A stretch of 64,000 bases of DNA from a virus. Its lineage: Duplodnaviria > Caudoviricetes. This document shows positions 12,956 to 57,604 of this stretch, one piece after another. The stretch is taken from IMG/VR virus record IMGVR_UViG_3300020718_000010, positions 27,035 to 91,034 of that record; one strand, 5' to 3'. Under the pieces are notes generated by a model. It saw nothing but the letters and a program-made list of their open reading frames with translations. It did not search any database and had not been told where the DNA came from. The position numbers and the translations under genes are program-made. Each line of letters begins with the position of its first letter. Positions within the stretch are counted from its first letter, which is position 1.

Positions 12956-13282
12956 CTATGAAATTACTGCTGCGTCGATGCGCAGAGTACCGCTAAGAAT
13001 TCTTTGGTGTCCGTCTGAAGAACTTGCTGTTATTTGAATGTTCCAAATACCCGGCGTAAGTACGGCAAGTTCATTTGGTGCCCAGTTCACAAAAAGGTTT
13101 GGTGATGTTGAGCGACCTACAAGTCCAGTCGTCTTTGTAAGAACCGCTGCGTTTGGTGGGCGTCCGATTGTAAGTTTGAAAGTCCATCCAGAACTGAAGT
13201 CCAATGTCGCTCCGTTTACATCTATCCAGTTGAACTCCGCTGCTGGGAGACTGGCTGCTGCTGTGGGGTAGTGAATTGTCAT
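12956..13282 (-). CDS. BppU-N-like beta-sandwich adaptor protein (108 aa)
   Basis: Pattern F.W.D.NG..LD.S.WT.KL.I...W...E...L.PG.W.IQI resembles baseplate-upper-protein N-terminal domains. Confidence 0.55.
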   Translation of the reverse strand: MTIHYPTAAASLPAAEFNWIDVNGATLDFSSGWTFKLTIGRPPNAAVLTKTTGLVGRSTSPNLFVNWAPNELAVLTPGIWNIQITASSSDGHQRILSGTLRIDAAVIS

Positions 13283-34764: not shown

Positions 34765-35760
34765 TCACGAAACCTTAGTTATTGTGCAGTAGCCGTTTGC
34801 GGCGTTATATGAAACACCTGATTGACTACTTCCTGCGTTGTAAGAACCACCGCCACCGCCTCCGTTACCGTTAGTTCCAGCACCACCACCACCAGAGTAA
34901 CCGCCAGCGCCGCCACCTCCAAAACCGGCAAAACCATTAACGTAACCAGAAGCACCCCCACCAAATCCACCATAAGATTGTGTTGAGGGGCTAGTGCTAA
35001 ATCCTCCAGAACCGCCTTGAGCATAACCAAAACCATTTAAATTTGTTCCACCACCTGCCGTATAGCCACCACCGCCAGTTCCACTGGATAAAAGTCCACC
35101 ACCATTGTTTCCGCCGCCAGAGCCGTTGCCACCACCCGTGGCGCCGTTTCCGCCCGTGCCACCAGTACCGCCACTGATTTGAGAACCCGTACCAAGTGGG
35201 GTTACTCCTGTGTTGGTAGAAACAGCGTCATATGAAACGCTTCCTCCATAAATGGTATTGGCACCTCCACCACCTCCGCCGGAAATAATTAAAGGAGTTG
35301 AAGTTCCAGAGCCTTGAAGAACAAAGGTGCCGCCGCCGCCTCCGGGGGGGCCTCCATACCCACTACTAACACCCAACTGGCCTACAAGAATGTACAAGAT
35401 AGTCCCAGATACAAGGGAAAAATTTCCTGACCAAATTAAACCCCTTCCACCCACCGAACTTGCAGTTCCACCCGCCGCACCAGCAGCAAGTATTGTAAAG
35501 GTCCCCGTGCTTGGTACGGTCCAAAGTTGTATTCCACCAGAAGTATTGAAATACAAAGTATTACTTGACCAACTTGTGCTTACATTGGAACTCAATGTGC
35601 TTATTGCTGTAGAAAGAGATGGCCCCGTATATCCTGATGTCCCATTGAAGGTTACATAACTTCCGGTTGGAAAAGTATATAAAGATGAGCCATAGTACGG
35701 AGTGGTAAATTCACCATACCCGTTAGCGGAGTCATCGCCCTGACCAGAAATAATAGGCAT
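34765..35760 (-). CDS. Glycine-rich tip adhesin, ALK/LTK-like glycine-rich domain (331 aa)
   Basis: IQLWTVPSTGTFTILAAGAAGG...ILVGQLG...GGGGGTFV and multiple GGGG runs. Confidence 0.75.
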   Translation of the reverse strand: MPIISGQGDDSANGYGEFTTPYYGSSLYTFPTGSYVTFNGTSGYTGPSLSTAISTLSSNVSTSWSSNTLYFNTSGGIQLWTVPSTGTFTILAAGAAGGTASSVGGRGLIWSGNFSLVSGTILYILVGQLGVSSGYGGPPGGGGGTFVLQGSGTSTPLIISGGGGGGANTIYGGSVSYDAVSTNTGVTPLGTGSQISGGTGGTGGNGATGGGNGSGGGNNGGGLLSSGTGGGGYTAGGGTNLNGFGYAQGGSGGFSTSPSTQSYGGFGGGASGYVNGFAGFGGGGAGGYSGGGGAGTNGNGGGGGGSYNAGSSQSGVSYNAANGYCTITKVS

Positions 35761-38528
35761 TAGAACTTAGTCAATCCTGCAAGAACTGTGTAGAAGTTTG
35801 ATGCGGTTTTAATAATTGTGTAGTTGTAAACGTCAATTTGGTTAGCGTTTCCAGATGTTGGCGCAGTTCCACCAGACCAATAAACAATTCCGTATGTTCC
35901 CGCAGTTGTGGTGATTGCGTTACCGTCAATTTGTATTGCGGAGTTATACCAAGCGGTTCCACCCTGAAGAACCATTACCGCAATGGTAATTGATTGGTTA
36001 ACTCCAAGAATTGAGTTAAGCGTTGTCGGGGTAGAACTACCAGTTATGTTAAGCGTCCAGTTTGCTGTTGCCGCTGCGTTGTAGAACCAAACAGAGCCTA
36101 GGGATGCGTAAATGCTTTGAGACGATGCGATTGCACTAGTTGAGTAGCGTATTGCTTCAAGCGGAGCCGTAAATACGGTATTGGTAGAAATAGTAGAAAC
36201 CGCAGGGGCACTTTGCCATGTAGCGACACCAGATGCGTTTGCGGCCAAAACTTGGTTAGCCGTTGGGGTGTTGGTTGCAAAAATTGGGTTACTAAACGTA
36301 ATCGCTGTAGTTCCAAGGGTGTCGGTTGTTTTATTGGTGCAGTACCAAGTTGTTCCTCCGTATGATGACCCTTGAAGGATTGAGAAGTTTCCGGCGGCTA
36401 ATTTTCCAATTGTATTGGCGTCAAAGTCACGAACGAATACTGCTGAAACACCAGTTGTTCCGTAGGTTGTGCACTTGTAGACGCCGTTTTGGAGACCAGC
36501 AGTTTGGTCTTTTAGCAAGATTCGGTCACCAAGACCGACCGTGTACCCATCCAAAACAAACGCTCCGGTGGCAGTGATGGTGAATGTGTCAGATGCAGTT
36601 CCTACATCGTTTGTTGTATTTGCGCCGACTGCGTACGTTCCAACAATGTTGGTTCCCGTTGAAGAAACCTGTACAACTGGGTGAGAACCAAACTGGTAGA
36701 AACCAGCGGAAGAAGATGGTCCGCCAGACGCTAACAATTGGGAAGAAGTTCCTGTTGTTGAAGATGTTAGGGGCTTAGAAAAGTTGACTGCAGTTGTTCC
36801 CATTGTGTCGGTTGACTTAGAAGAACAAAACCAGACTGTTCCACCGTTTTGATTTCCTTGAAGAATTTGAACTACGGAAGCCGCCAACTTGTTTGTAGTG
36901 TCAACGTCATTGTCTCTTACAAATGCTGCATTAATTCCATAGACACCCTGAGTTGTACATACATAGACACCATTTTGGAATGCAATTGTCTGGTCTTTTA
37001 TAAGAATGCGGTCACCAATTTGTACCGTATATCCATCAATTACTAATGGACCAGTTGCTGATACTACAAATGTAGAGTCGTTGGTTACCGAGCCCGGGGT
37101 GTTGTTTGAATATGTTCCAAAAATATTATTTCCGGTTGTTGCAACTTGGACGGGTTCATGGACATTGTATTGAATATATTGCGGCGGTCCATTAATACCG
37201 GGAACTCCATATGACATAAGCAATTGCCCTGCTTGACCATAGCCACCAATTGCTGAAACGTTATAAGAAAAATTAATTGGTGTTATCCCCATGGTCCCCG
37301 TAGAGGAAGATGAGCAAGTCCATACTGAGCCACTATTTGAATTGCCTTGACGAACTTGAACAATAGATGCGGCTAATTTAAAAAAAGTATTTGCATCATT
37401 GTCACGGACCATTGAAGTTGCAATGCCACTAGAACCTGCAGTGGTGATAAGCCAGATTCCATTTTGAGCGCCATTTAATTGGTCTTTTAATAAAATGCGG
37501 TCGCCAGTTTGAACCGTATAACCATCTATTACTAGGGTTCCTGTTGCCGTTGTTACAAAAGTATCGGATGCTTGCGCAGGGTCAAGAGAGGTGTTTGCAC
37601 CAACCGTATATGTTCCAGCAACATTTGTTGTTGAGGCAGCACTTACTGGTTCGTGAACCCCAAAAGAAACCCAGTTAGGCCCTGCCTGACCAGTTCCTCC
37701 ATAAGACATAAGCAATTGACCTGCGGTACCAACACCTGTAGCGCTAGTAACTGAAAGGGTAAAATAAATTCCTGTTGTTCCAAGAACACCAGAATTGGAA
37801 AGCGTTGTTTGCCACGTAGAGCCACCATTAAGTGCTCCGTTATAAACAGAGACAGTCGCCGCTGCAAGTTTTGAAATTGTGTCGCCATCATTATCTCTAC
37901 AAAAAACAGCACTTACCCCAACGGAGCCAGCAGTTGTGCATAGCCAAATTCCATTTGACGCTGCGTTAGTTTGGTCTTTAAAAAGAACACGGTCTCCAGC
38001 GTTAATAAGAATTCCGTCAACGTAAAAAGCACCAGTTGCGGTGATTGTAAGAAGGTCTGCCCAAACTGGATAATCGTTAGTATTGTTTCCAGTACTTGTT
38101 AAAGCATTTCCAAGAGTGTATGTTGCAGGAATATTGCTTCCTGTAGTGGCAACGTTTACCGGTTCATGAACGTTTAACTGAATAAACTCAGGCCCACCAT
38201 TTGCTACGTTTCCATAAGACATAAGGAAAGAGCCAGAGGTTCCAGATGCTGTTGTTAATCCAGTTCCATCGGCCGCTCCATAAACAACACCGCCGGGCGT
38301 TGCGTTTGCTACTCCAACTGTTGAAGTTGCGGTTGCGTCATACCAAAGAACTGATGTATCTGTAGGCGGCACTCCATTGCTGGTGCTGATTACGCCTTGA
38401 TTCCCTTGGTAGCCTTGAAAACCTTGTTGCCCTTGGGCTCCATTTGCACCTTGGACTCCCTGATAGCCCTGAGAACCGACAACGGCAGTTACCCATGTCG
38501 AACCGTTCCAATATTTCAGTTGAGCCAT
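35760..38528 (-). CDS. Fibre protein with four tandem ~160-aa domains and the conserved C-terminal tip-docking domain (922 aa)
   Basis: Four copies of HEPV.VA.T...IDG..V..GDR.L.KDQ....QNG.W.CTT.G...RD.D; ends YTVLAGLTKF. Confidence 0.8.
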   Translation of the reverse strand: MAQLKYWNGSTWVTAVVGSQGYQGVQGANGAQGQQGFQGYQGNQGVISTSNGVPPTDTSVLWYDATATSTVGVANATPGGVVYGAADGTGLTTASGTSGSFLMSYGNVANGGPEFIQLNVHEPVNVATTGSNIPATYTLGNALTSTGNNTNDYPVWADLLTITATGAFYVDGILINAGDRVLFKDQTNAASNGIWLCTTAGSVGVSAVFCRDNDGDTISKLAAATVSVYNGALNGGSTWQTTLSNSGVLGTTGIYFTLSVTSATGVGTAGQLLMSYGGTGQAGPNWVSFGVHEPVSAASTTNVAGTYTVGANTSLDPAQASDTFVTTATGTLVIDGYTVQTGDRILLKDQLNGAQNGIWLITTAGSSGIATSMVRDNDANTFFKLAASIVQVRQGNSNSGSVWTCSSSSTGTMGITPINFSYNVSAIGGYGQAGQLLMSYGVPGINGPPQYIQYNVHEPVQVATTGNNIFGTYSNNTPGSVTNDSTFVVSATGPLVIDGYTVQIGDRILIKDQTIAFQNGVYVCTTQGVYGINAAFVRDNDVDTTNKLAASVVQILQGNQNGGTVWFCSSKSTDTMGTTAVNFSKPLTSSTTGTSSQLLASGGPSSSAGFYQFGSHPVVQVSSTGTNIVGTYAVGANTTNDVGTASDTFTITATGAFVLDGYTVGLGDRILLKDQTAGLQNGVYKCTTYGTTGVSAVFVRDFDANTIGKLAAGNFSILQGSSYGGTTWYCTNKTTDTLGTTAITFSNPIFATNTPTANQVLAANASGVATWQSAPAVSTISTNTVFTAPLEAIRYSTSAIASSQSIYASLGSVWFYNAAATANWTLNITGSSTPTTLNSILGVNQSITIAVMVLQGGTAWYNSAIQIDGNAITTTAGTYGIVYWSGGTAPTSGNANQIDVYNYTIIKTASNFYTVLAGLTKF
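36300..38230 (-). repeat. Four tandem ~480-510-nt domain repeats inside the 922-aa fibre gene (boundaries approximate)
   Basis: HEPV/HPVV anchors near 38165, 37652, 37157 and 36680. Confidence 0.8.
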
Positions 38529-38576: not shown

Positions 38577-39452
38577 TTAGGCTTGAAGAAAGTCCAAAGC
38601 AAAAGTAACCATTTGCTCTGAGAACTGGCGCCTAAAGGTTGGTACGTCTACATAAACCCCGTCAACCGCCAAAGAGCCCACTGGGATTGGCTCATCGCAA
38701 AGGTCAACTTTGAAGAAAGGGGTTAAATCATTGTTTACATTTATTGCAAAAGAAAATAGGGCACGAACTTTTGTAGTTTCTTTTTGTAGCGGATGAGGAT
38801 TATCCCAACCCTGCCAACCACCTATTTTTTTAATTTCTGGCGTACCCACGTGAGAAAAAATTCCTGAATACGGCTCTGACGTACCCACTTCCCCTAATTT
38901 TCCTTCTGTATCAAATGTTTTAATTGCAGCAATTGCTGTTTGAGAAATTGTTTGCATGAATTGGTAATAATCATTTGAGTCTTTAAATGTCAAAACTCCA
39001 GCAATAAATACTTGACCTTCATTGTGGTAGAAAGCGCCGCCGGGTCTGTTTGAGGGCTGAATTGGGTCTTCATAACTAGAAAGGTCATCTTTAAAAGAAG
39101 TTACTTTTGTTTTGCTTCCAGTTGAATAATGGGGTTTCATTTCTCCAACAAAAAGAAAATTGCCGTTCATTTTGGTCATTATTTCCAAAGGAAAAGAAAG
39201 GTCACCATTGAAATCTTTTTTTGCCTCAAAGTGAATAACAATAAGTTCTTCTTCTTTTCCACCAATTCCACCAAACATTTTGGTAAAAAGGTCCGTTGCG
39301 CTTTCTCCGGTTGCAGAAAAAAGTGGTTTTCCAATTTCGAATGGAACAGTTGGTCCTTTGTCAATTAATTCATAGTAAAGCGATTTACAATTTTTGTTTG
39401 CAGGGTCGTAAATCTCGTTAGGGTCAGAATATAAATGAGTTACAGTAGCCAT
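38577..39452 (-). CDS. Divergent LipB-like (BPL/LplA/LipB fold) acyltransferase (291 aa)
   Basis: Colinear LipB-like motifs: GEMKPHYSTG, SNRPGGAFYHNEGQ, SGIF...KKIG, FAINVNNDLTPFFKVDLC. K209 and C252 sit at the catalytic positions. Manual alignment only. Confidence 0.72.
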   Translation of the reverse strand: MATVTHLYSDPNEIYDPANKNCKSLYYELIDKGPTVPFEIGKPLFSATGESATDLFTKMFGGIGGKEEELIVIHFEAKKDFNGDLSFPLEIMTKMNGNFLFVGEMKPHYSTGSKTKVTSFKDDLSSYEDPIQPSNRPGGAFYHNEGQVFIAGVLTFKDSNDYYQFMQTISQTAIAAIKTFDTEGKLGEVGTSEPYSGIFSHVGTPEIKKIGGWQGWDNPHPLQKETTKVRALFSFAINVNNDLTPFFKVDLCDEPIPVGSLAVDGVYVDVPTFRRQFSEQMVTFALDFLQA

Positions 39453-39460
39453 TTTAAACC

Positions 39461-39688
39461 TTAAGGGGTTGTGAATTTTCCTGTTGTTGGGTCATAAATG
39501 TCCCCGCCCGTAGCCAATTGTGCACCATTTGGTGCAGATATATTGACGCAAGAAAGTGGACTACCCGAAAGAAACTTAAGTGCTAATTCGGGCTTAAGAA
39601 ACATTGTTGCCTGAACAACGTTGTCAATAATTATTGCCACTTTTACTAATTTGGCAATCTCTGGGACCGGGGGCATTGTTTCGGGCAT
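39461..39688 (-). CDS. Small Tfa-like protein (75 aa)
   Basis: KVAIIIDNVV.......LALKFLS...GDIYDPTTGKF; paralog of the C-terminal domain of 39688..40302. Confidence 0.6.
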   Translation of the reverse strand: MPETMPPVPEIAKLVKVAIIIDNVVQATMFLKPELALKFLSGSPLSCVNISAPNGAQLATGGDIYDPTTGKFTTP

Positions 39689-40302
39689 TAGTTAACTGTT
39701 GGTGGAATATTTGGTGTTCCCATGGGCGCCAAATTATTTAATTCACCCGTGAGATTTGTTGTGTCAATGCTAATTGGCGGTATAGAAAACATTCTGGTTT
39801 TAGCATCAAACAAGTAGCCAGCCTTTACTTCCGAGGTTGCGTCAGTAACGTCTACAACGGTTGGGGCGCTTAGAAAAATTGCAGCCAGTCGCTCATCAGT
39901 AAACAAAACGTCAACCACTTCACCATCAATTACCATTGCAAGTTTTACTGGTGGCACTGCCTGTGGTGTTAATGGCTCAGGCGATGTTGAAGTATTTACT
40001 TGCGGTGGTTCTACTGGGCGAGTATTGTCTGGAACCCCAACAACCGGAATTGAGTATTCACCAATGCCTTCATCCGTTACAGATGCGATAGAAATAGAGT
40101 ATTTTTCTCCATTGGTCAAATTATCAATAGAAATAGATGTTGAGTCCTTGGTAATTGCAATGCTTTTAAGCGTTCCCGCTTCATCAGTTATTGAGATGCT
40201 GTATCCCCCCAAAGATGGGTCAACAATTGGAAGCCAATTTACAATTAGTGCATTATTAGATGGGAAGACTTGAAGATTTTGAGGAGCATTAAGTGTTGAC
40301 AT
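39688..40302 (-). CDS. Fibronectin type III domain + Tfa-like domain protein (204 aa)
   Basis: APQNLQV...LIVNW...YSI...LTNGEKYSISIASV...G.G.YS, then KLAMVIDGEVVDVL..DERLAAIFLS.P.VVDVT. Confidence 0.7.
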   Translation of the reverse strand: MSTLNAPQNLQVFPSNNALIVNWLPIVDPSLGGYSISITDEAGTLKSIAITKDSTSISIDNLTNGEKYSISIASVTDEGIGEYSIPVVGVPDNTRPVEPPQVNTSTSPEPLTPQAVPPVKLAMVIDGEVVDVLFTDERLAAIFLSAPTVVDVTDATSEVKAGYLFDAKTRMFSIPPISIDTTNLTGELNNLAPMGTPNIPPTVN

Positions 40303-40568
40303 TATTGGTCTTTCTTTGTGTCATCGGTTTTGTAAGAAATACTTACTGCGGACCATTTTCCAATTGGGCAAGAAGCATTTGGAAGTTTCACCTTGGCATT
40401 CATAATGCAACCGCATTCGGTGCATTGGTGGGTTAGGGAAACATAGTTAGGACAGGCTTTGCAAATTTCAAAACGCTCATCTGCAACAACCGTAGCCACA
40501 CGACCAATGTTTTTATTCCACAAATCCCAAGGTCTTGCTGGTCGCTCACTTGCTGCTTCGTTTGTCAT
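40302..40568 (-). CDS. Small Cys-rich probable metal-binding protein (88 aa)
   Basis: RFEICKAC...QCTECGC.M.AK.....SCPIGKW. Confidence 0.75.
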   Translation of the reverse strand: MTNEAASERPARPWDLWNKNIGRVATVVADERFEICKACPNYVSLTHQCTECGCIMNAKVKLPNASCPIGKWSAVSISYKTDDTKKDQ

Positions 40569-40570
40569 TT

Positions 40571-41557
40571 TTATACCTGCGCTCGGAAACTGGTGATTGT
40601 TGAACCTTGGCTATTGCTAGTAGGTGCTTTTACTATACCAGCGTATTGACTCTGAAGCCCAATTGTTGGTGAAAAATTTGCCGTTCCCAAAACTGTTGAA
40701 AACCCAGTGTCAGAGTAAGCGGTGGCAATAATTGAGCCAGAATCAGCATTTGCCTGCACTTTAATCGCTACGGCTTGACTACTAAGAGAAACATCATTTG
40801 TAACAGTACTAACTACACCACTTAAATTTTGCAAAATTCTCATGTAATAATTAACAGAACCACAAGATTGGTAACAAGTAGAACAATTGCAAGAAACGCA
40901 ATTACAGGGAACCGCACAAGTGTCACACGAAGTACCCCCACCGGTGCAGGTACAGGTAGTGCCTCCACCGGTACAAGTTGGTGGAATGTCAACGCAAACA
41001 AGAGGGTCGCTTCCACAGCAGTACGCAGCACCTTTTTCACCATAAGCAGTGCAGTTGCAGCCACCACCAGAGCACGACGTGCCTCCACCCGAACAGGTTT
41101 GTGGAGAGGTTACACAAGATTGCGTGCACGGCGTAGTAACGCAATTACACGAAACGTTGCAAGTCTGGCAACAATTGCTGCAGTTGCAAGAATATGGATT
41201 GCACGCATACGTGCTATTTACATTGTAACTTGTTGCAGCGTACCAAGAAGTTCCTAGTGCTGATACCCAAACGGCTACTCCGGTTCCCTCTGAAACAACT
41301 GCACTGGCGGTTTGATTAAAAGAGTTTACATCTATTGCAGAAACCGGATATACAGTTGAGGTTGCATCTGATTGGGCTTGATTGTTTGAGTTTACGTACC
41401 AAGTTCCGGTTATAGAGTTCCATGTAGCACCATTAGTTGATGTTCCTAGGCCACCTTGAGTTGCAGAGCGGGTGAAGTTGTCAGCAAGGATTTTGTGAAA
41501 CGTTTTAAGAAATCCAAATCCTTGTGATGATGAACCGCTAGTTGACGCTAATGGCAT
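40571..41557 (-). CDS. Tip adhesin with a 28-Cys insertion (328 aa)
   Basis: MPLASTSGSSSQGFG leader; beta-rich flanks; 28 Cys in 114 aa (40862-41203). Confidence 0.8.
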   Translation of the reverse strand: MPLASTSGSSSQGFGFLKTFHKILADNFTRSATQGGLGTSTNGATWNSITGTWYVNSNNQAQSDATSTVYPVSAIDVNSFNQTASAVVSEGTGVAVWVSALGTSWYAATSYNVNSTYACNPYSCNCSNCCQTCNVSCNCVTTPCTQSCVTSPQTCSGGGTSCSGGGCNCTAYGEKGAAYCCGSDPLVCVDIPPTCTGGGTTCTCTGGGTSCDTCAVPCNCVSCNCSTCYQSCGSVNYYMRILQNLSGVVSTVTNDVSLSSQAVAIKVQANADSGSIIATAYSDTGFSTVLGTANFSPTIGLQSQYAGIVKAPTSNSQGSTITSFRAQV

Positions 41558-41559
41558 GA

Positions 41560-44500
41560 TTACTTAAAGTAGTTCGTTGAGGCCAAAACTGTGTAGGTAT
41601 TGGCAGCCGTTTTTAATATGGTGAAGTTATAGATGTCAACCGAATTCGCTGCTCCAGCAGCAGTTGGCGCACCCGTTCCACCTTGCCAAATAGGCGTAAC
41701 GGCGTTTCCATCAATTAGGAATCCAGTTGCATAATACAAAGTTGTTGCACCGTTTTTAACAAGAACAGTTACACCAATTGATTGTCCAATTGCAAGAAGC
41801 GTATTTAAAGGAACTGTAGAACCAGCGATACCGGCGGAGAAGTTTAATGCAAATGTATTTGCAGAATTCGAAGTGAAATACCAAATTGAAGAAGCGCCAA
41901 GGTAGATGGTTTGAGTTGCTGTTGGCGCTGCAGTAACAACTTGGAATGCCTCAAGCGGTGCATTCATTGCAACATTTGTTGTTGCTGCTGAATAACCTTG
42001 AGGTCCCTGAGGTAGCGAGAAGTTCAGAATTGCTGAGCCAGCAGTACCTACGTTTGATACTGCAGCCTGAACTCCATATGCAACAGTCGATGTTGTACCA
42101 ATGGTGATTCCCGCTTGGTTTCCTTGGTAACCTTGAGGTAGCCCAAAGTTAAGTACGGATGCACCCGCTGTTCCTGAATTGGAAACTGTTGCCTGAGAAC
42201 CAGAAGCCAGCGTTGTCGTTGTTCCAATTGTGATTCCGCTTTGAGTCCCTTGAAAACCTTGGTAGCCCTGAAATCCTTGATTCCCTTGATTCCCCTGAAA
42301 TCCTTGATTCCCTTGAAAACCTTGTGGGCCTTGCGCTCCAACAAATGCTGCGGTACCAGTAGAACCTTGATTTCCTTGAAAACCTTGAGGCCCTTGGGCT
42401 CCGGTGTAACCCTGTGGTCCTTGAACTAATCCAAAATTAAATGTTGCTGTTCCGTTAGAGTTACCAACCGTAACTTGTGGCGTTGGTGCAACGGTAACCG
42501 TTCCAATTGCGGCGAGTGGTGCTGGTCCTTGATAGCCTTGCGTCCCTTGAACCCCTTGACGGCCTTGTGCCCCTTGAGTTCCCTGAGGTCCACCGTATGC
42601 GCCTTGATACCCTTGTGCCCCTTGAGACCCCTGTGGTCCCTGCGTTCCATTTCCTGAAGCAGAATTGTCAAGCCAAAGAAGAGTTGTATCAACTGGTGCA
42701 ACACCGTTTGCTGATACGTATACGCCTTGTGCACCTTGATACCCTTGAGGCCCTTGGACGGATGCACCTTGACTACCTTGTGTTCCTTGCGCACCAATAT
42801 TTCCCTGAGGACCTTGTAAACCGGTTGAACCTTGAGTTCCGGGGACTCCTTGGTACCCCTGAACAATTGTTGGTGTGGATGTTGTATCCATCCATAGAAT
42901 TCCAGTATTGGTTGGTGCAATGGATTGGTTAACAATTCCCGGGTCACCAGTAAGACCTGTGTAACCTTGATTTCCTTGAGTGCCAGCACCCTGATTTCCT
43001 TGGTAACCTTGAGGTCCTTGAGAACCAGTAGCGCCTTGAACACCTTGGTAACCGGCGCCTTGAACACCTTGATTCCCTTGAACTCCTTGAGTCCCTTGCG
43101 GCCCTTGTGTACCAGAGCCAGTTCCAAGACTTCCGTATCCACCAATGGTGAATTGCCAGTCAGAAAAAGCGCCGCTTCCGTATGAACTTGTGATGTTAAC
43201 TGTAATGCTTGTGTCGGTCACTACATTGGTGATTGTTCCACCCATGTAATAAGAAGTAGAAGCACTAATAACGTCAATTACTGAACCCGGTACGTACGCA
43301 CCTGTGTAGTTTGTGTAGAAGGTAAAAATTCCACTTGCAGCAATTGTGTAAGAAGTGTTTGAAGTTACGTTGTAACCACGTCCGTACGAACCTTGTGTAC
43401 CAACATAACCTTGTGGACCCTGTGAACCAAGTTGTCCTTGGTAACCTTGTGGTCCTTGATTACCGGTTGCACCTTGTGCACCGACATAACCCTGAGCCCC
43501 TTGTGCGCCTTGTGACCCTTGAGGTCCTTGGTAACCAGTTGGTCCTTGCGTTCCAGTATTACCTTGCGTACCTTGTGGCCCAGTTAAACCCTGCGTCCCT
43601 TGATTCCCTTGAGGGCCTTGAACTCCAGTGAAACCTTGGTTACCTTGCGCACCAGTTGAGCCTTGGTAACCCTGATAACCAATTGCACCCTGATAACCAA
43701 TTGGTCCCTGTGAACCAGTGAAACCTTGAACGCCTTGCGCACCGGTGGCACCGGTTGTACCTTGGAATCCTTGATTACCTTGGGCACCAGTTGCACCAAT
43801 TTGACCTTGGTATCCCTGCGTTCCTTGCGAGCCAGTGGCACCAACCGAACCTTGGAAACCTTGATTTCCTTGAGAGCCGGTTATTCCTTGCGTCCCCTGT
43901 GCACCAGTCGCACCAGTTGAACCTTGGTATCCTTGCGTACCTTGCGACCCGGTGGCACCTTGATTTCCTTGCGAACCAGTTGTACCTTGGGAGCCAGTAG
44001 TTCCTTGCGCTCCAGTTGAACCTTGGTTGCCTTGATTGCCCTGAAGACCGGTTGCACCTTGATATCCCTGCGGACCGATTGAACCAGTTTGTCCAATAAC
44101 GCCTTGTGGTCCTTGGTAGCCTTGATACCCTTGGTATCCAATTGAGCCTTGAGCACCAGTTAGACCTTGCGTTCCTTGAGAACCAGTAGCGCCGGTAGAG
44201 CCTTGTGCACCGGTAGAACCTTGCGAACCGGTTTGTCCTTGAGAACCCTGAGACCCTTGTGCACCAGTTGTTCCAGTGGCACCTTGGTTTCCTTGATTTC
44301 CCTGTGAACCAGTTGACCCTTGGTATCCTTGACTTCCTTGCGAGCCAGTTGCGCCTTGGTATCCTTGGTATCCAATTGCACCTTGCGAACCAGTAAAACC
44401 TTGCGCACCCTGTTGCCCCTGTGAACCAGTTGCACCTTGAGAGCCTATTGAACCTTGTGCCCCCTGTGCCCCCTGAGAACCAGTCGCACCTTGTGCACCA

Positions 44501-47154
44501 GCAGCACCCTGCGTTCCATTAGTTCCGGAGATTCCTTGAAAACCTTGTGCACCATTAGAGCCTTGTGCGCCCTGACCCCCTTGAGGTCCCTGAGCCCCTT
44601 GTGCACCAGTTTCGGTGTACATGACTTGTTGCACGGTAACAATCATTGAAGGTGTAAGAGGTGCAAAAGAAGTTGCAGCGAGAGTTACTATTTTAATTGA
44701 TAAATCGGTTGTCGCCCAACGGAATTTTACGTATTCATTAGCGGTTGTAGTGGTGATTAGGTAATTCCACGATTGAATAATTGCGTAGTTGTTACCTGCT
44801 AGTTGAACATCACCGGCAGAGGCGGCAACATCTGTTCCATTTTGATTAATCCAAACATACGCATTACCAGTTCCACCAGAGTTTCTAATAAACTGAGCAG
44901 AAAATTGAACGTTGTAAACACCGGGACTTGCAATAATAATATTTGGTGTTGTTAAGGATATTCCGCTTGTGTCACCAAAACTATTTAGATTTATGTCATA
45001 GGCAGTATTTACTACTGCGGCAGATTGTGTTGTTGTATCCCAGAACGAACCGTAGTAACCATGGGCGCCACCAACACCCTGTGGTCCTTGATAACCCTGA
45101 GGTCCAATTCCACCTGTTTCCGCAAAGTGAATATTGTCTGTTCCAATTATAATACTTAAGTCAGAAAGAGAACCGTAATCAATTTGCGTCCAAGTAGTGC
45201 CTGCGTACAAAGTTCCATTGGTACAAAAAACATAGTCACCAACAGAAACTTCACCTTGATTGCTATTGTCATAGTCTGAAGCACGAGTAAGAATCCACTT
45301 GGCACTTGTTCCACCAGAATTTGTTACGAGGTAAATACCGTTACGAGTTTGTGGGGTTTGATTATTTACCAGTACACGTTGACCAACTGCTGGGTTAACA
45401 CCATCGATGGTTAAAACACCATTTGCCGATGCCGTTAGTGTTGCGCCAATACCGTAACCACCATCTGCTCCAAGTGTTCCTGCTACGTAAACGCCAGAGT
45501 TTGTTACTCCTGAATAGTCAACTGCAACAACTGCGGCGTGTGCGTTAAGAGAAGACGCTGCACCCTGAACACCTTGGGGTCCCTGCAGTCCAGTAACACC
45601 TTGTGGTCCAGTTTGACCTTGGTACCCTTGGTAACCTTGGCTTCCAGTCGCACCTTGGCTTCCTGTTGCTCCTTGGTAACCCGTTGAACCTTGACTTCCA
45701 GTTGAGCCTTGATATCCCTGAGGCCCCTGAAGACCAGTTGCACCCTGAGAGCCAGTTGTTCCTTGTAGCCCCTGAGAACCTTGCGGTCCAGTTGCGCCTT
45801 GAGAACCGGTTGCGCCTTGTGAGCCAGTTGTTCCTTGCGTCCCTTGAAAACCTTGATTCCCTTGCGCTCCAGTTGCACCCTGTGTTCCCGTTAAACCTTG
45901 AACACCAGTTGCTCCTTGGTACCCCTGTGAACCCTGTGGACCAGTAAGACCTTGAGCACCAGTTGAACCAGTGCTTCCTTGTGTTCCTTGAACGCCGGTT
46001 GCTCCAGTTACGCCTTGAAAACCTTGATAGCCTTGAGCCCCTTGGCTTCCGGTTGCACCTTGTGAACCAGTTGAACCTTGAAAACCTTGTGAGCCTTGTG
46101 CACCAGTAGAACCCTGCGTTCCAGTTGAGCCTTGCGTTCCTTGAACACCTTGCGCACCCGTGGAACCAGTGAGGCCTTGATTGCCTTGAGAACCTTGAGC
46201 ACCTTGCGAACCAGTTGAACCAATTGGTCCTTGTGCTCCGGTGGAACCTTGTGAACCCGTTAAACCTTGAGGACCAGTTGAACCTTGTGTACCCGTAGAC
46301 CCCTGCGCACCCGTGCTCCCCTGCGCACCCGTGGAGCCTTGGCTTCCAGTTGAGCCTTGACTTCCTGTTGAGCCTTGCGAACCCGTAGAACCTTGTGGTC
46401 CTGTGGAACCTGTTGAGCCTTGATAGCCTTGCGCTCCTTGACTTCCTGTTGAACCAGTATTACCTTGTGGTCCCTGCAAACCTGTTGAGCCTTGTGAACC
46501 AGTATTACCTTGATTTCCTTGAGGACCAGTGTTACCAGTTAGACCTTGATTTCCTTGTGAGCCTTGGCTCCCTTGATACCCTTGTTGCCCTTGACTTCCG
46601 GTTACACCTTGCGTCCCTTGTGGTCCGGTCTGCCCTTGGTAACCCTGTGCACCTTGTGTCCCTTGGTATCCACCAGTTGCCCAGTAAGCAGTAGTTCCGT
46701 CTGATGCTAGAAACTTTCCTTGGGGGCCAATTGGAAGTCTGCTGAATTGGTTCGCTTGTGAACCAATGATGAGGTCACCTTGCGATTGGACTTTTCCAAT
46801 TGTGTTCCATACCGCAGCGTTTGCTTCAGCAATGTCAATTGCAGTAATAATTGGAACAACGATTGCATTTATTGAGTGTGGCTCGGCAACGGTGCCGTCA
46901 ATTCCACGAGTTACTCCAGTAAGGGTAACCGTAAGACCAGTCCAGTTGTAAGAACCGGCTGGTACGTAAATCTTTTCTTCGGCGGCATTTCCAAAATCGA
47001 TGGCGAGGTAGAAACCATTAGTTCCAAGACCCGACCAACCACCGGTCGTATTTGTAAGAACGATTGTGGTGTCAGAACTGCCAATAGCCGTGTAGAGATA
47101 GGCGTTCGGGGCGGCCCCGACGTAACTATTCTGAGAGTAGGCAACCCTTGACAC
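41560..47154 (-). CDS. Giant collagen-like fibre protein (1,864 aa)
   Basis: N-terminal domain shared with 50696..52702; two long Gly-X-Y runs; C-terminal tip-docking domain ending [11 protein letters not shown]. Confidence 0.9.
43384..44607 (-). repeat. Collagen-like run 2 (~136 Gly-X-Y triplets)
   Basis: Uninterrupted GXQ/GXT/GXI triplets; 9-nt periodicity. Confidence 0.9.
45556..46671 (-). repeat. Collagen-like run 1 (~124 Gly-X-Y triplets)
   Basis: Uninterrupted GXQ/GXT triplets, including tandem GSTGSQ and GSTGAQ units. Confidence 0.9.
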
Positions 47155-47257: not shown

Positions 47258-48493
47258 TTAGAAGTCCAGTTGTCCGCCGTAACGGTTATTTGGGTCTTTT
47301 AGGGCAATGAGGTTTGCTGAAACATATGAGATATTCACTTGGCGGTGCCACTCATTTGGAAAGTATGTCATCAGGCGGCTGCGTTGAAACTTTGCCTTAA
47401 TTGCTGGAACATACTTACGGTGGCTTTCGCTGGTGAAATACCAAAACGAGTTTTCATTGTAAAAAGCAACGTGTGTTGGGTCTTGGAATGCTCCACGGCC
47501 ATCTGTTGATGGGGTGAAACTAAGAATCATTCCGCCCTCTGCCAAAACTCTGTACATCTCGTTAAACAATTCAATCTTGTTTTCGATGTGCTCCAAAAAG
47601 TCAACAGCACGGATTACTCCAACGCTTCCATCATCAAACGATGAAAGAATTTCAAAAACATCGCCAATGTAATCAGCGGGCGCTTCAATGTCTACCGTTA
47701 CGTAACCGGGGGCGGGGTTGTGTGCGCCACCAAGGTCTAGGCATTCCAAATCATTTTCGGTTGCCCATTTTAAAATCATCAGTTCAATGTACTTGGCGTA
47801 AACGTTGTGTGTCTCTTGCTGAATCTTTGCATTGAGGTCAGCCTTGGCCTGAGAATTTTCAGTGTGTACACGCTGCAGGTAAAGGTTCTTTGGAATGTGG
47901 TAGAAATCTGAAGCAAGGTACATACGGCAAATGATGTCTTGGTCGTCCAAAACTTCCATAGTTACGTCGTAGCCGCCAATGTCATCGTAAACAGATTTAC
48001 GGAATGCTCTTACATGGTTTGGGGCGTACCAAACATAGGCAAGGTTTGCAGGGTGGTGAGAAAGCGATTTGCATACGTGGTAGCCGTGCTCATCATCGTA
48101 GAACTCCCAACCGTGCGTCGTATCAAACTCAACAAGGTTTGGTGTTCCGTCTTCATTGATTTGAGCAAAATCAGAATAAACAAATCCAACGTTTTCATTT
48201 TCCTCAAAAGCCTTAACAATTTCTTCTAAAGCGTTTGGTGAAAGAAGGTCATCGTGGTCAAACTCAACCAAGTATTCGCCAGTACAAAGAGCGGCGGCTT
48301 CGTTTTTCAGAAGACCAATCAAAGCAGAAGAATCGCTTTCGTAAAGTTTTACCCTTGCATCATCGCAGGTCCATGTGGCGCCGTTGTTTAAAAGAACGAC
48401 CCACTCCCAGTCTGAGTAGGTTTGATTAACGAGCGACTCAAGTGCTGCGTCAAGATACTTGCTGTTGTGGCTTGGAGTGAAGAGACTTATCAT
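47258..48493 (-). CDS. GT2-family glycosyltransferase fused to a class I SAM methyltransferase (411 aa)
   Basis: GT-A motifs ISLFTPSHN, LESLVNQTY.DWEWVV, EFDHDD, IGGYD...DDQD; methyltransferase motifs LDLGG, DFLEHI, EMYRVL..GG, DPTH. Confidence 0.88.
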   Translation of the reverse strand: MISLFTPSHNSKYLDAALESLVNQTYSDWEWVVLLNNGATWTCDDARVKLYESDSSALIGLLKNEAAALCTGEYLVEFDHDDLLSPNALEEIVKAFEENENVGFVYSDFAQINEDGTPNLVEFDTTHGWEFYDDEHGYHVCKSLSHHPANLAYVWYAPNHVRAFRKSVYDDIGGYDVTMEVLDDQDIICRMYLASDFYHIPKNLYLQRVHTENSQAKADLNAKIQQETHNVYAKYIELMILKWATENDLECLDLGGAHNPAPGYVTVDIEAPADYIGDVFEILSSFDDGSVGVIRAVDFLEHIENKIELFNEMYRVLAEGGMILSFTPSTDGRGAFQDPTHVAFYNENSFWYFTSESHRKYVPAIKAKFQRSRLMTYFPNEWHRQVNISYVSANLIALKDPNNRYGGQLDF

Positions 48494-54441: not shown

Positions 54442-54781
54442 TTGATAGAACCTCTGCTCTGGTGATGATGTTTACATTTGGAAGATGCTGGAGAATGTTT
54501 GCTTCATTCTTTTTAAATGCGTAAATTTCTTTTTTGGTAGAAACCGCAACAAGCGCTTCAGTCTTTGAATCATTTGATGCAGCCCACCAAGGCAAAACAA
54601 TAACTGCGTCGCAGTCCATGAGAGCCGCTATACGGGCCTTCATTTGCCCCTCAGGGGATTCTTTGCTTGCTAGGCAGACAACCTCAATGCCTTCTTTTGA
54701 AAGCCTTTGAATCGCCTCTGAGAAGACATCGTAATTTCCGTTTGGTATGCCCTCCATTGGGCCCGATAGGTAGTATTTCAT
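54434..54781 (-). CDS. DUF4406 / nucleoside 2-deoxyribosyltransferase-like protein (start reassigned to MKYYLSGPM)
   Basis: YLSGPM.G...N...F...CDAVIVLP.W..S.....E...A; ATGA overlap with the upstream stop. Confidence 0.75.
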   Translation of the reverse strand: MKYYLSGPMEGIPNGNYDVFSEAIQRLSKEGIEVVCLASKESPEGQMKARIAALMDCDAVIVLPWWAASNDSKTEALVAVSTKKEIYAFKKNEANILQHLPNVNIITRAEVLSNV

Positions 54782-56004
54782 ATAATAAGCAAGTCGCCCC
54801 AACCACGTTTTCCGTAGTCAAGACCGATGCCTAGACAAAGAAGACCGGCTGGTGAGTTTTGGCCTGAAGTACCTGTAAACCACTTACTTCCTCCATCAAG
54901 AGCCGGAGTTTGGAAACAGGTTCTACCACTTGCCTCACTTGTAAGAAAGTGGTGAAAGTGTCCAGAGAACAAAATGGCTGCGCTTCCAACCGCTTGCTGT
55001 CCCATTACTTGGCCCTTCCACCAATTTTCAATCTTGCCTTGTGAACCGCCGCCACCGCTTCTGAATTGGTGACCATGAGCAAAACTGCAGGGTACGCCAG
55101 CAATGTCGTAAGTGAGAGTAAGGTCGTCAGGATTCAAAACTTTATCAATGTCGGGGACAGAAACGTTTGCATAGAAATCGGGATTGCCTGCAAATATTTC
55201 TCCCAATTGCTCAAAGACGGCTAAATCATCATTGTCAGTAAGTGTGGTGAAACTTTTTCCATTTTTTCTGTTTTCTCCGTGGTTTCCGGGTACAGCGCCC
55301 AAGATAATTGGAATGTCAAAGTTCTTTACTAAATCATTTACAAGACGAAGAATTAATCTACGAACAATTCTTACTTGGCTTCTGCGGTCTTGGTCCACTG
55401 AAAAACTTTGTTGCGCATAGTGTCCGTCGCATCCTTCAATTAAATCACCAAGACCCACTACATAAATGTATGAAGGTGCACGGCCTACTTTAATCAATTC
55501 ATTAATTCGTTCTATAACTTTGTCAATGGTGATTATGATTCGCTCAATAAGCGCTTCAGTGCCGCCACCTTCATCTTTTCCTGCTTGCCAGTCAGAGCAC
55601 AAAATAAGAAAAGCACGGTTTCCCGTGCCACCTTTTTTTGCAGCCCTTGGCGCTTTGTATTTCATAACAAGTTCGCAAAGTGCCTCTATGTCTTCTGTGT
55701 CAGCAGCACGTTCTTTGGTGCGAATTGATGCACGGTAATAACGCATACGTTGGACGTTTCCTTCACCAACGTTTGTGTCCCATCCACGAATGTGAACTGA
55801 ACCCTCAACAATTTCTGTTAAGTCTGGTGATAGTCCCCAGTCGGCAATTAGTTCACTCCAAATTGCGGGGTCTGGCTCAACGGCAAGCGCAGGCGTATCA
55901 ATGTAGCCCTTTTTGCCATCCCATTTAATTGTTGGCTCTAAGCCTTTTGGTATTTCGTTCTTATGTCTTTTTGGAAGAGAATCTTCAGCATCACGAAGTG
56001 GCAC
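54778..56004 (-). CDS. Calcineurin-like metallophosphoesterase / Mre11-type nuclease (start reassigned to GTG 56004)
   Basis: Motifs SDWQ, GDLIEG, PGNHG, HGH, GHFH. Confidence 0.8.
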   Translation of the reverse strand: MPLRDAEDSLPKRHKNEIPKGLEPTIKWDGKKGYIDTPALAVEPDPAIWSELIADWGLSPDLTEIVEGSVHIRGWDTNVGEGNVQRMRYYRASIRTKERAADTEDIEALCELVMKYKAPRAAKKGGTGNRAFLILCSDWQAGKDEGGGTEALIERIIITIDKVIERINELIKVGRAPSYIYVVGLGDLIEGCDGHYAQQSFSVDQDRRSQVRIVRRLILRLVNDLVKNFDIPIILGAVPGNHGENRKNGKSFTTLTDNDDLAVFEQLGEIFAGNPDFYANVSVPDIDKVLNPDDLTLTYDIAGVPCSFAHGHQFRSGGGGSQGKIENWWKGQVMGQQAVGSAAILFSGHFHHFLTSEASGRTCFQTPALDGGSKWFTGTSGQNSPAGLLCLGIGLDYGKRGWGDLLII

Positions 56005-56251
56005 GGTAAGCGCCTTTCCACACTGCGTCATCAGGACACATACATTGACCAATGAGATGATGGCGAATCGTCTTCTCGCTGATTTGTACGCCGTCACTTG
56101 CAACGACTCGGACAATGAAATTTACAGGTTTGCGGTCTTTGACCCATCCATCAAATACTTCTCTATCGTCTTTGTCAAAAGACTGATAGGTTACAGATAG
56201 TTTGCAGACCGACCCCTGCTCTAAACGGGCTTGCGCCTCTCTGAATGACAT
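55991..56251 (-). CDS. Hypothetical protein, possibly metal-binding (86 aa)
   Basis: C...I..H..GQCMC pattern; overlaps the phosphoesterase start; TAACTT 6 nt before ATG. Confidence 0.65.
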   Translation of the reverse strand: MSFREAQARLEQGSVCKLSVTYQSFDKDDREVFDGWVKDRKPVNFIVRVVASDGVQISEKTIRHHLIGQCMCPDDAVWKGAYRATS

Positions 56252-56599: not shown

Positions 56600-57604
56600 C
56601 TAGGCGATGATGTTTGACCAGAAGTAACCGAGGTCTGCAGCAACAACTTTGTTGTCGAATGCAACTTCAGCCTCAACACGGTCAGCCTTCAACTCTTCCA
56701 TACGGAAGCGTGAAACACCAACAGTTGAGCCAAGTCCACCAGAAACGCCAGTCCACATGAATGTGTAACCAGCAGATGGTGTCAAGAGGCCCGGGTTAGG
56801 TGCGGTGTAGCAAAGTAGCGCTGAGTTACCAGTTGTGAAACCGTATGACTGAGCGTTAGTGCCTTCCTTACCTGAGTTAACTACTGCCTTAGCAACGAGT
56901 ACACGGTCAACACCGAAGAGTTGCGCAAGCAAGTCTTCAGTAATGATTGCACCGGCTTGGGTGTACTTGTAACGGTCAACGAGCAATGGGTGATTCTTAA
57001 GCATTTGGAATACTTTGTAACCAAGCACGAATGTGTTTGGCTCGTATCCAGTGGTGCTTAGAATCTGTGCCTTAGCGGCGTCCACTACTTCAATTGGGTT
57101 AGAAGTGTATGTAGTTGGTGCTGAAACATAGTCGTTCCAGAACGCAGTTGTGGTTGTTCCGTTTGGTGAGGCGTTTCCTGCAACATCTCCACCGGTCCAT
57201 ACGCCTGCGGCGAAGAAGTCGGTAGCCCATTGAACTTCACGACGAAGAAGAAGACGCTGTGTTACAAATTGCGTTGCTTCCATGTCTGGGTTAAGTGGGT
57301 TGTCTGCGTTAGCACGAGTCTGGTCACCGATGTCCTTGTGAAAGGCGTACACGTCTGTGGTGTAGTTGTCGGTGGTCAGTCCGTAGCCTGAACCTGCTGA
57401 AGCAGTGCCGTCTGAACGACGTTGTGCTTCGTCACGGAACCAGTCGTCCTTGGTGTACTTGAAGTATAGGTTACTCTTCTTGTCCACTGGAACTACTGGG
57501 AATACTTTGTCTGCAATAAAGTTTGCAGTGTTCTGAATGTAAGCAACCGAGATGTTAGTCAAAATTGCGTCAATGTGAACATTATTTACGTTTGGCTGTG
57601 GCAT
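56600..57604 (-). CDS. Major capsid protein (lambda gpE-like family, 334 aa)
   Basis: P...VHIDAILTNISVAY.Q..FIADKVFPVVPV.K.S..Y; follows scaffold and cement genes; strong RBS. Confidence 0.9.
   Translation of the reverse strand: MPQPNVNNVHIDAILTNISVAYIQNTANFIADKVFPVVPVDKKSNLYFKYTKDDWFRDEAQRRSDGTASAGSGYGLTTDNYTTDVYAFHKDIGDQTRANADNPLNPDMEATQFVTQRLLLRREVQWATDFFAAGVWTGGDVAGNASPNGTTTTAFWNDYVSAPTTYTSNPIEVVDAAKAQILSTTGYEPNTFVLGYKVFQMLKNHPLLVDRYKYTQAGAIITEDLLAQLFGVDRVLVAKAVVNSGKEGTNAQSYGFTTGNSALLCYTAPNPGLLTPSAGYTFMWTGVSGGLGSTVGVSRFRMEELKADRVEAEVAFDNKVVAADLGYFWSNIIA

Follow-up and report, generated by a model that had tools for sequence, protein, structure and literature searches.

The window analysed here is the right-hand 64 kb of a 91-kb viral record from IMG/VR (IMGVR_UViG_3300020718_000010, estimated to be 72% complete), and all of its genes are carried by the minus strand. 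Within a long block of fibre-like genes lies an open reading frame (ORF) of 291 codons plus a stop codon (38577..39452, minus strand), which was identified by homology as a relative of lipB. LipB is a bacterial enzyme that normally puts an eight-carbon fatty chain on metabolic proteins. The protein encoded here is a phage-specific and strongly remodelled descendant of LipB: it has kept the Lys/Cys dyad and the His/Gly-Gln loop, it has gained an N-terminal beta-domain, and its gene is inherited together with cassettes encoding a fibre-like "carrier" and an adhesin-like protein. Residues 1-67 (39252..39452, minus strand) form the add-on, which contains three long beta-strands and a helix in an AlphaFold2 (AF2) model, and residues 68-291 (38580..39251, minus strand) form a complete LipB-type catalytic fold, as indicated by structural alignment with 2qht_A and by a Foldseek match to 1w66. 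The codons for K209 (38826..38828, minus strand) and C252 (38697..38699, minus strand), the counterparts of the catalytic Lys and acyl-thioester Cys of LipB, were checked and fall in invariant alignment columns. A gap of 8 nt separates the start of the ORF from the stop codon of a 75-aa ORF, and another of 48 nt lies between its end and the next fibre gene. These spacings make it the last gene of a tightly packed run that also holds a Cys-rich adhesin, in agreement with a preliminary description of this DNA. Promoter and terminator scans over 34-49 kb gave signals no higher than shuffled expectation and allowed no inference on transcription units.

By its sequence, the product of 38577-39452 is a true but remote homologue of LipB, and the similarity goes well beyond chance. 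Residues 96-249 match the Pfam LplA-B_cat model (PF21948; E 8.4e-5) with 23 bits, which is below the gathering score of 27, and residues 104-252 match NCBIfam TIGR00214 (lipB; E 1.1e-6) with 28.3 bits, below the equivalog cut-off of 83.55. The gene belongs to a family of nine sequences, all from uncultured phage contigs, recovered from 15 billion proteins and contig collections. TIGR00214 is matched independently by eight of the nine members (best E 9.2e-9), and the remaining NCBIfam matches of family members are exclusively to LipB models. An exhaustive phmmer search of 1.84 billion representative proteins returned six proteins, namely five family members of 267-292 aa and, as the sole match from outside the family, P0004, a genuine LipB fragment (Pfam E 1.7e-12) named LipB by its source. 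Three alignments served for the comparisons below: A6 with the nine family members, A5 with 35 cellular LipBs, and A7 with all 44 sequences. When the family was compared with the cellular LipBs by hhalign, the profiles aligned with Prob 99.0 and E 4e-18 over 171 columns, pairing family residues 97-287 with LipB residues 40-215. Thus, Pfam, TIGR00214, phmmer, and hhalign all bear out the colinear resemblance to E. coli LipB that had been claimed. Identity between the family and any LipB is only ~16-25%, with very long branches. A phmmer search of the protein against PDB sequences found nothing, and the family profile gave merely non-significant LipB/LplA matches in the PDB (E 0.3-0.6).

With the 44-sequence alignment A7 as input, AF2 returned a model with a predicted local distance difference test score (pLDDT) of 85.8 and a predicted template-modelling score (pTM) of 0.85. 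Its top Foldseek match was M. tuberculosis LipB (1W66; E 3.8e-11, template-modelling score 0.76 on the target), and its top VIA-align match was T. thermophilus LipB (2qht_A; Z 19.0, root-mean-square deviation 2.8 Å, 199/210 residues). The preliminary description had left room for a fold unrelated to LipB; what is predicted is a LipB fold, and the two checks against the BPL_LplA_LipB family that it had proposed, by profile-profile comparison and by Foldseek, both lead to LipB. VIA-align pairs residues 68-289 of the model with residues 1-209 of the 2qht_A chain. As LipB residue 1 is matched by residue 68 of the model, the LipB fold in residues 68-289 is complete and the add-on corresponds to residues 1-67; it is thus ~67 aa long, and not ~90 aa as first stated. 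The pLDDT of the add-on is about 58-87, and a Pfam search with the isolated N-terminal 70 aa of three members gave no match.

The columns of G112, G138, H143, G146, Q147, G197, K209, G215, and C252 are invariant in 44/44 sequences of A7, and N238 is invariant across the family and present in 34/35 LipBs. For K209 and C252, this means 9/9 family members and 35/35 LipBs, and the invariance holds among members that are just 19-30% identical. The placement of C252 is anchored by a gap-free match of NVNNDLTPF...C to NVxxDLxxFxxIVPC of LipB. The catalytic Lys and Cys of LipB are K135 and C169 in E. coli, and K142 and C176 in M. tuberculosis (PMC9307952). Both residues are therefore retained, as the preliminary description had it. 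Of 14 columns invariant in the family, 10 are also invariant in LipB (Fisher p 3e-6). Comparison with a 92%-identical relative in contig L001 gave a ratio of nonsynonymous to synonymous substitution rates (dN/dS) of 0.079 (dS 0.60, dN 0.047), which indicates that the gene is under strong purifying selection. Catalysis is likely kept.

Other LipB-invariant positions have been replaced family-wide, namely the His of EHPP (M105), a pocket Thr (F141), the Pro of HGPGQ (E145), and the His-Gly of HGxALN (F233-S234). The acyl pocket of M. tuberculosis LipB is lined by L47, T54, R76, T81, H83, and H157 (PMC9307952), and the family-wide losses include the counterparts of two of these residues, T81 and H157. 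Within the family, the Thr is substituted by Phe or Ala, and the His by Phe, Val, or Ala. Pocket residues S110 (T in 3/9 members), R136, and H143 are kept or conservatively changed, and the counterpart of Leu47 is hydrophobic, as judged by eye only. The RGG loop reads R136-P137-G138 in the window and D-L-G, with the Arg lost, in P0002, a distant sister; RGG and the PCG motif are kept in the six members of a second sub-clade, clade B, the window belonging to clade A. That RPG stands for RGG and that the HG of HGxALN is missing had been pointed out before; both are borne out by the columns of A7, and the losses of the EHPP His, the pocket Thr, and the HGPGQ Pro come in addition. The change to RPG need not inactivate the enzyme, because E. 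coli LipB mutants R71A and G72A/G73A keep 21% and 39% activity, respectively (PMC9307952). The LipB-fold core also differs in charge, with a mean net charge of -11.3 in the family vs -1.9 in cellular LipBs (p 1e-5). Such an acidic surface would be unfavourable for partners that are themselves acidic, like acyl carrier protein (ACP) and lipoyl domains.

As to origin, two insertions, D-x-x-G-x-LG (residues 181-187) and ET-x-P before the catalytic Lys, are common to the family and to three cellular LipBs, P0016, P0012, and P0022, and are missing from the remaining 32 LipBs sampled. A maximum-likelihood tree recovered the phage sequences as one monophyletic clade (95/93) and grouped them with the same three LipBs against the other 32 (95/90); the tree has very long branches, and its LipB sample was drawn with an acidimicrobial query. 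Because of this sampling bias and these branch lengths, the strongest independent support for the origin is the phmmer search, which found only an Acidimicrobiales-type LipB outside the family. Sequence comparison thus designates Acidimicrobiales-type LipBs as the closest cellular relatives, and the phage gene was probably captured from a cellular LipB. P0016 (L018:5001-5603) is a canonical enzyme encoded in an lpd-E2(lipoyl)-E2-lipB-lipA operon on a contig of 65% GC, the phage having 45% GC.

The family is very small. The phage clade to which the window belongs is large, comprising at least 178 IMG/VR contigs with 60-87% identity in the major capsid protein (MCP). Arthrobacter and Microbacterium phages have MCPs that share 50-54% identity with the window MCP. 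Searches with tblastn, using the window protein and a clade-B member against 50,697 phage records, found no homologue; PHROGs gave no match for four family members; pattern scans of GTDB genomes with both sub-clade alignments found no prophage copies; and a further viral scan with the clade-A alignment found nothing. The family thus defines a LipB subfamily without earlier annotation, which is missed by single-sequence searches, by PHROGs, and by single-sequence structure prediction. The clade-B adhesin gene follows the same pattern as the LipB-like gene, being found in 1/19 long related records; the two are jointly present in three lineages and jointly absent from 18 related records. An alignment of three clade-B adhesins yielded only poly-Gly search patterns and no confirmed loci, and the co-occurrence of adhesin and LipB-like genes therefore rests on the three lineages and the 18 co-absences.

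The run that ends with the LipB-like gene consists of fibre and fibre-associated genes, all on the minus strand. Its first gene (41560..47154) encodes the carrier, a collagen-like fibre of 1864 aa that ends in a ~145-aa C-terminal domain shared with other carriers. It is followed by the gene for the adhesin-like, Cys-rich protein of 328 aa (40571..41557), with an N-terminus of the type MP(L/I)...G..S..G.G, and by three small genes (39461..40568), of which one encodes a Cys-cluster protein of 88 aa (phrog_13558), one an fn3 protein of 204 aa, and one a 75-aa protein paralogous to the C-terminal domain of the latter. Directly downstream of the LipB-like gene lies the next pair (34765..38528), a carrier of 922 aa and an adhesin-like protein of 331 aa. 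This arrangement recurs, and the gene-neighbourhood survey suggested earlier recovered the order carrier, adhesin-like gene, zero to three small ORFs, and LipB-like gene in four lineages. The window has the 1864-aa carrier, the 328-aa adhesin, the three small ORFs, and the LipB-like gene; contig L004 has proteins of 365, 574, and 93 residues and then LipB-like; L011 has 706, 836, LipB-like; and L016 has 585, 911, LipB-like. In L007, which is cut at its upstream end (771+, LipB-like), the order is partial: the adhesin-like and LipB-like genes are visible in succession and the carrier position lies outside the contig. The adhesin-like proteins start with MP(L/I)..S..GAS..GEG(E/Q)F, and the carriers end with ...Y.(F/I)T(I/V)..T....YTV(F/L)AS.TK(F/Y). 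The large genes upstream of the clade-B members had been considered as terminase and portal; this was rejected, since BLAST assigned them to fibre-like carrier and adhesin proteins. In L011, whose MCP is 79% identical to that of the window, the second gene past the LipB-like one encodes a Pfam Gp80 fibre protein.

Carrier-adhesin pairs are found repeatedly in the window (41560-47154/40571-41557, 35760-38528/34765-35760, and 27773-28324/24075-27773) and in its relatives (L011:5064-9697, L016:1534-5993, and L004:708-3531). The carriers differ greatly in length, yet end in one common ~145-aa domain, and the same domain is present in "sericin-like" proteins of cyanophages and in two Roseobacter phages, CRP-3 and CRP-738. 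The 75-aa ORF (39461-39688) is paralogous to the C-terminal domain of the fn3 protein (39688-40302; BLASTP E 3e-5, 28% identity), and both proteins end with a motif similar to YDP.TG.F, which recalls small fibre-assembly proteins. The run is headed by a gene for a GT2 glycosyltransferase-methyltransferase fusion (47258..48493, minus strand), a second putative modifying enzyme. The copies of the fusion in the window and in L004 (L004:12876-14162), the other clade-A contig with a LipB-like gene, share 50% identity, and so the two putative modifying enzymes, GT2-methyltransferase and LipB-like, co-occur in both.

Proteins of the fibre block (14633-52702) are extremely poor in Lys and charged residues, several having at most one Lys; in the 1864-aa collagen-like protein there are 9, and the interspersed small proteins and enzymes have a normal composition. 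The LipB-like protein contains 7.2% Lys, an ordinary soluble-protein composition, compared with 0-1.6% in the fibre proteins. The ~40 kb of fibre-like genes (13282-52702) lie between the head genes, with the MCP at 56600-57604, and the head-tail connector genes, which run from 12956-13282 downwards, and not after the tape measure; the counterpart interval in L011 spans ~7.6 kb. Given this location, the fibres may belong to the head or neck and not to the tail tip. The tape-measure ORF itself is 3157 aa long (3-5747, continuing to G000:C1:23308), and its size implies a siphovirus tail of exceptional length. We also noticed a gene for an Mre11-like metallophosphoesterase/exonuclease (54778-56115; phrog_284, E 3e-52), situated between the capsid gene and the fibre block and kept at the same place in L011 with 61% identity; this is an odd location for a nuclease.

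Several candidate acceptors for an acyl chain were considered and rejected. A lysine acting in cis in the N-terminal domain was discarded, as no family-invariant Lys precedes residue 104. In the carriers, the Lys of FTI-x-KT seen in the window is replaced by Gln or Cys in L011, L016, and L004, and conservation is only partial for the K in the next-to-last position of the carriers. Partners of canonical lipoylation were looked for as well. The 91-kb record contains no match to the lipoyl domain, GcvH, PP-binding, or radical SAM models (PF00364, PF01597, PF00550, and PF04055), and three related records contain no lipoyl domain (PF00364). The absence of lipA and lipoyl-domain genes, first noted for the window, thus extends to the whole viral record, which is about 72% complete.

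We tentatively propose that the LipB-like protein is an active thioester acyltransferase which modifies or matures a phage fibre or adhesin protein, a proposal that we place somewhat short of probable. Late in infection, an acyl chain would be taken from a host acyl-phosphopantetheine donor, acyl-ACP or acyl-coenzyme A (acyl-CoA), to form a thioester on C252, with K209 acting as acid/base, and would then be passed to an amino group, most likely that of a lysine, in a fibre or adhesin component from the same operon. Chain and partner specificity would be altered by the remodelling of the pocket and by the acidity of the surface, and the N-terminal domain would dock the new partner. In its most specific form, the proposal becomes doubtful: the LipB-derived acyltransferase would fatty-acylate a lysine of a phage fibre or adhesin in the infected cell, using host acyl-ACP or acyl-CoA, and would form with the adhesin a cassette providing a hydrophobic handle for the host envelope. 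A repurposed enzyme fits the divergence pattern better than an ordinary auxiliary metabolic gene does, because pocket residues are lost, an N-terminal domain is added, the surface is acidic, and the position after carrier/adhesin pairs is kept in five lineages. That lipoylation partners are absent from the record also counts for repurposing, as the nearest cellular LipB is encoded within an lpd-E2-lipB-lipA operon. The preliminary description had envisaged a repurposed enzyme acylating fibre or tip proteins of the virion. Of this, a diverged LipB with its dyad kept, the location inside the fibre block, and the pattern of repurposing all stand, whereas acylation and its acceptor, with no conserved Lys, are conjectural, and the fibres may sit on the head or neck instead of the tip.

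A number of observations weigh against a fibre-modifying acyltransferase. Its activity, donor, and acceptor are predictions. No Lys is conserved across the carriers or the adhesins, and no lipoyl-like acceptor domain was found among the neighbours. Literature searches turned up no earlier case of phage virion proteins being fatty-acylated by an enzyme, consistent with the earlier remark that such a modification is not known from phages, and no report of a phage LipB-like fibre-associated protein. The gene itself is found in 1/19 long related records and in 0/6 records that are at least 90% complete, which makes it dispensable in the clade, and of the 5/19 records with the carrier C-terminal domain, 4 lack it. 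Because it is absent from 18/19 related contigs, four of them with the carrier domain, the LipB-like gene is an accessory of particular fibre cassettes and not a general fibre-maturation factor. Physical linkage alone could explain why it co-occurs with the adhesin. In the sub-clade of the window itself, the RGG loop is degraded (RPG, and gone in P0002) and LCD stands in place of PCG. Last, the single-sequence AF2 model was poor (pLDDT 30.7), and the confident one came from an alignment with true LipBs; as that alignment contained LipBs, the predicted fold does not count as evidence separate from the sequence. The ESM Atlas model was as poor as the single-sequence AF2 model, and its neighbour lists gave no leads.

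A possibility to be weighed was that the gene is an auxiliary metabolic one, encoding an octanoyl-ACP:protein octanoyltransferase that acts on host lipoyl domains (E2, GcvH) and keeps 2-oxoacid dehydrogenases lipoylated, its fibre location being incidental. Indeed, the family is specifically LipB-like, with all its NCBIfam matches to LipB models, and keeps the dyad, the Arg, the His, and the GQ; a lipA or lipoyl domain of its own would be unnecessary if those of the host were used; and an accessory, sporadic gene, probably captured from a cellular LipB, recalls many metabolic add-ons. We nonetheless regard this as unlikely, given the low identity to any LipB, the very long branches, and a score far under the equivalog cut-off (28 vs 83.55 bits). 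Five LipB-invariant residues, two of them in the acyl pocket, are replaced family-wide, the acidic surface would be unfavourable for ACP and lipoyl-domain partners, as inferred from charge, and neither the conserved extra N-terminal domain nor the invariant position after adhesin genes in five diverged lineages would be expected. Moreover, ordinary LipBs do exist in six phage or phage-labelled records; they are 37-43% identical to cellular LipBs, probably conventional, and unrelated to the fibre-linked family. Alternatively, catalysis could have been abandoned, and the LipB fold with its hydrophobic tunnel exapted as an assembly chaperone for fibres or adhesins, or as a virion-borne binding module, docked via the N-terminal domain. 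The gene lies after the adhesin and Tfa-like small genes, the usual place of fibre assembly factors, the sub-clade of the window has a degraded RGG loop, the HG and His pocket residues are lost, and there is both an extra domain and co-inheritance with one adhesin type. This too we hold to be improbable: invariance of K209, C252, H143, G146-Q147, and N238 at 19-30% identity is hard to explain without active-site chemistry, the protein has a soluble cytoplasmic composition unlike that of the Lys-poor fibre proteins, and Pfam and PHROGs gave no match to a chaperone or structural family, which is an absence of matches only.

A retained dyad combined with a remodelled pocket and surface might also point to an active enzyme with another target, either a hydrolase or deacylase of the Cys/Lys type, or an acyltransferase for a component of the host envelope, a host protein, or a small molecule, in host takeover or receptor remodelling. 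Such a target would agree with the lack of an acceptor among the phage neighbours and with the accessory distribution. It would, however, leave the tight and conserved coupling to adhesin genes unexplained, and the sequence showed no obvious signal peptide or other sign of envelope targeting, although no formal test was made; we consider it quite unlikely. The acyltransferase acting on a fibre or adhesin protein is thus the reading that we favour.

Were the fibre or adhesin acyltransferase real, it would rank as the first enzymatic system dedicated to the lipidation of virion proteins in bacteriophages, and as a clear case of a cofactor-attachment enzyme captured from a host and re-aimed at a viral substrate. 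Protein lipidation would then join the ways in which phages tune their receptor-binding proteins. Post-translational modification of phage virions has been little explored, and here a single fibre operon holds two putative modifying enzymes. Even if the protein were a chaperone or a metabolic helper, a LipB subfamily would be newly defined.

Compared with LipB itself, whose structures include 1W66 and 2QHS/2QHT, the phage protein has the whole catalytic fold, the Cys/Lys dyad, the Arg of the RGG loop, YH..GQ, PG(V/I)W, N..DL, and the Cys loop. It differs by the ~67-aa add-on, by the replaced EHPP His, pocket Thr, HGPGQ Pro, and HGxALN HG, by RPG, by being ~10 net-charge units more acidic, and by scores below curated cut-offs; its gene lies in a late fibre operon, whereas cellular lipB lies beside lipA and E2 genes. 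The Acidimicrobiales-type LipBs (the P0004, P0016 group) share the two insertions, but have all LipB invariants, an lpd-E2-lipB-lipA operon, and 65% GC. LipM and LipL, the octanoyltransferase and amidotransferase of Bacillus, and the LplA ligases have the same BPL_LplA_LipB fold (structural Z 14-17). LipM and LipL likewise work through an acyl-thioester on a Cys, and LipL is an example of this fold passing an acyl group from protein to protein. The phage sequence profiles nonetheless point to LipB, with all NCBIfam matches to LipB models; the phage fold resembles 2ars_A as well (Z 16.7), and the phage protein ends with the catalytic domain, apparently without the C-terminal domain of LplA. Viral proteins with an LplA/LipB fold are present in BFVD, namely a Bodo saltans virus lipoate-protein ligase, an "LplA" of Siphoviridae sp. 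ctVCm11, and ctg6c78 (Foldseek E 8e-8 to 8e-6); none has a sequence-level match to the phage family. Finally, toxin-activating acyltransferases of the HlyC type are encoded beside their substrate, and use host acyl-ACP to fatty-acylate internal lysines of RTX proteins. They belong to a different protein family and we claim no kinship; should the favoured reading hold, the LipB-like protein would be their functional analogue in a phage fibre cassette.

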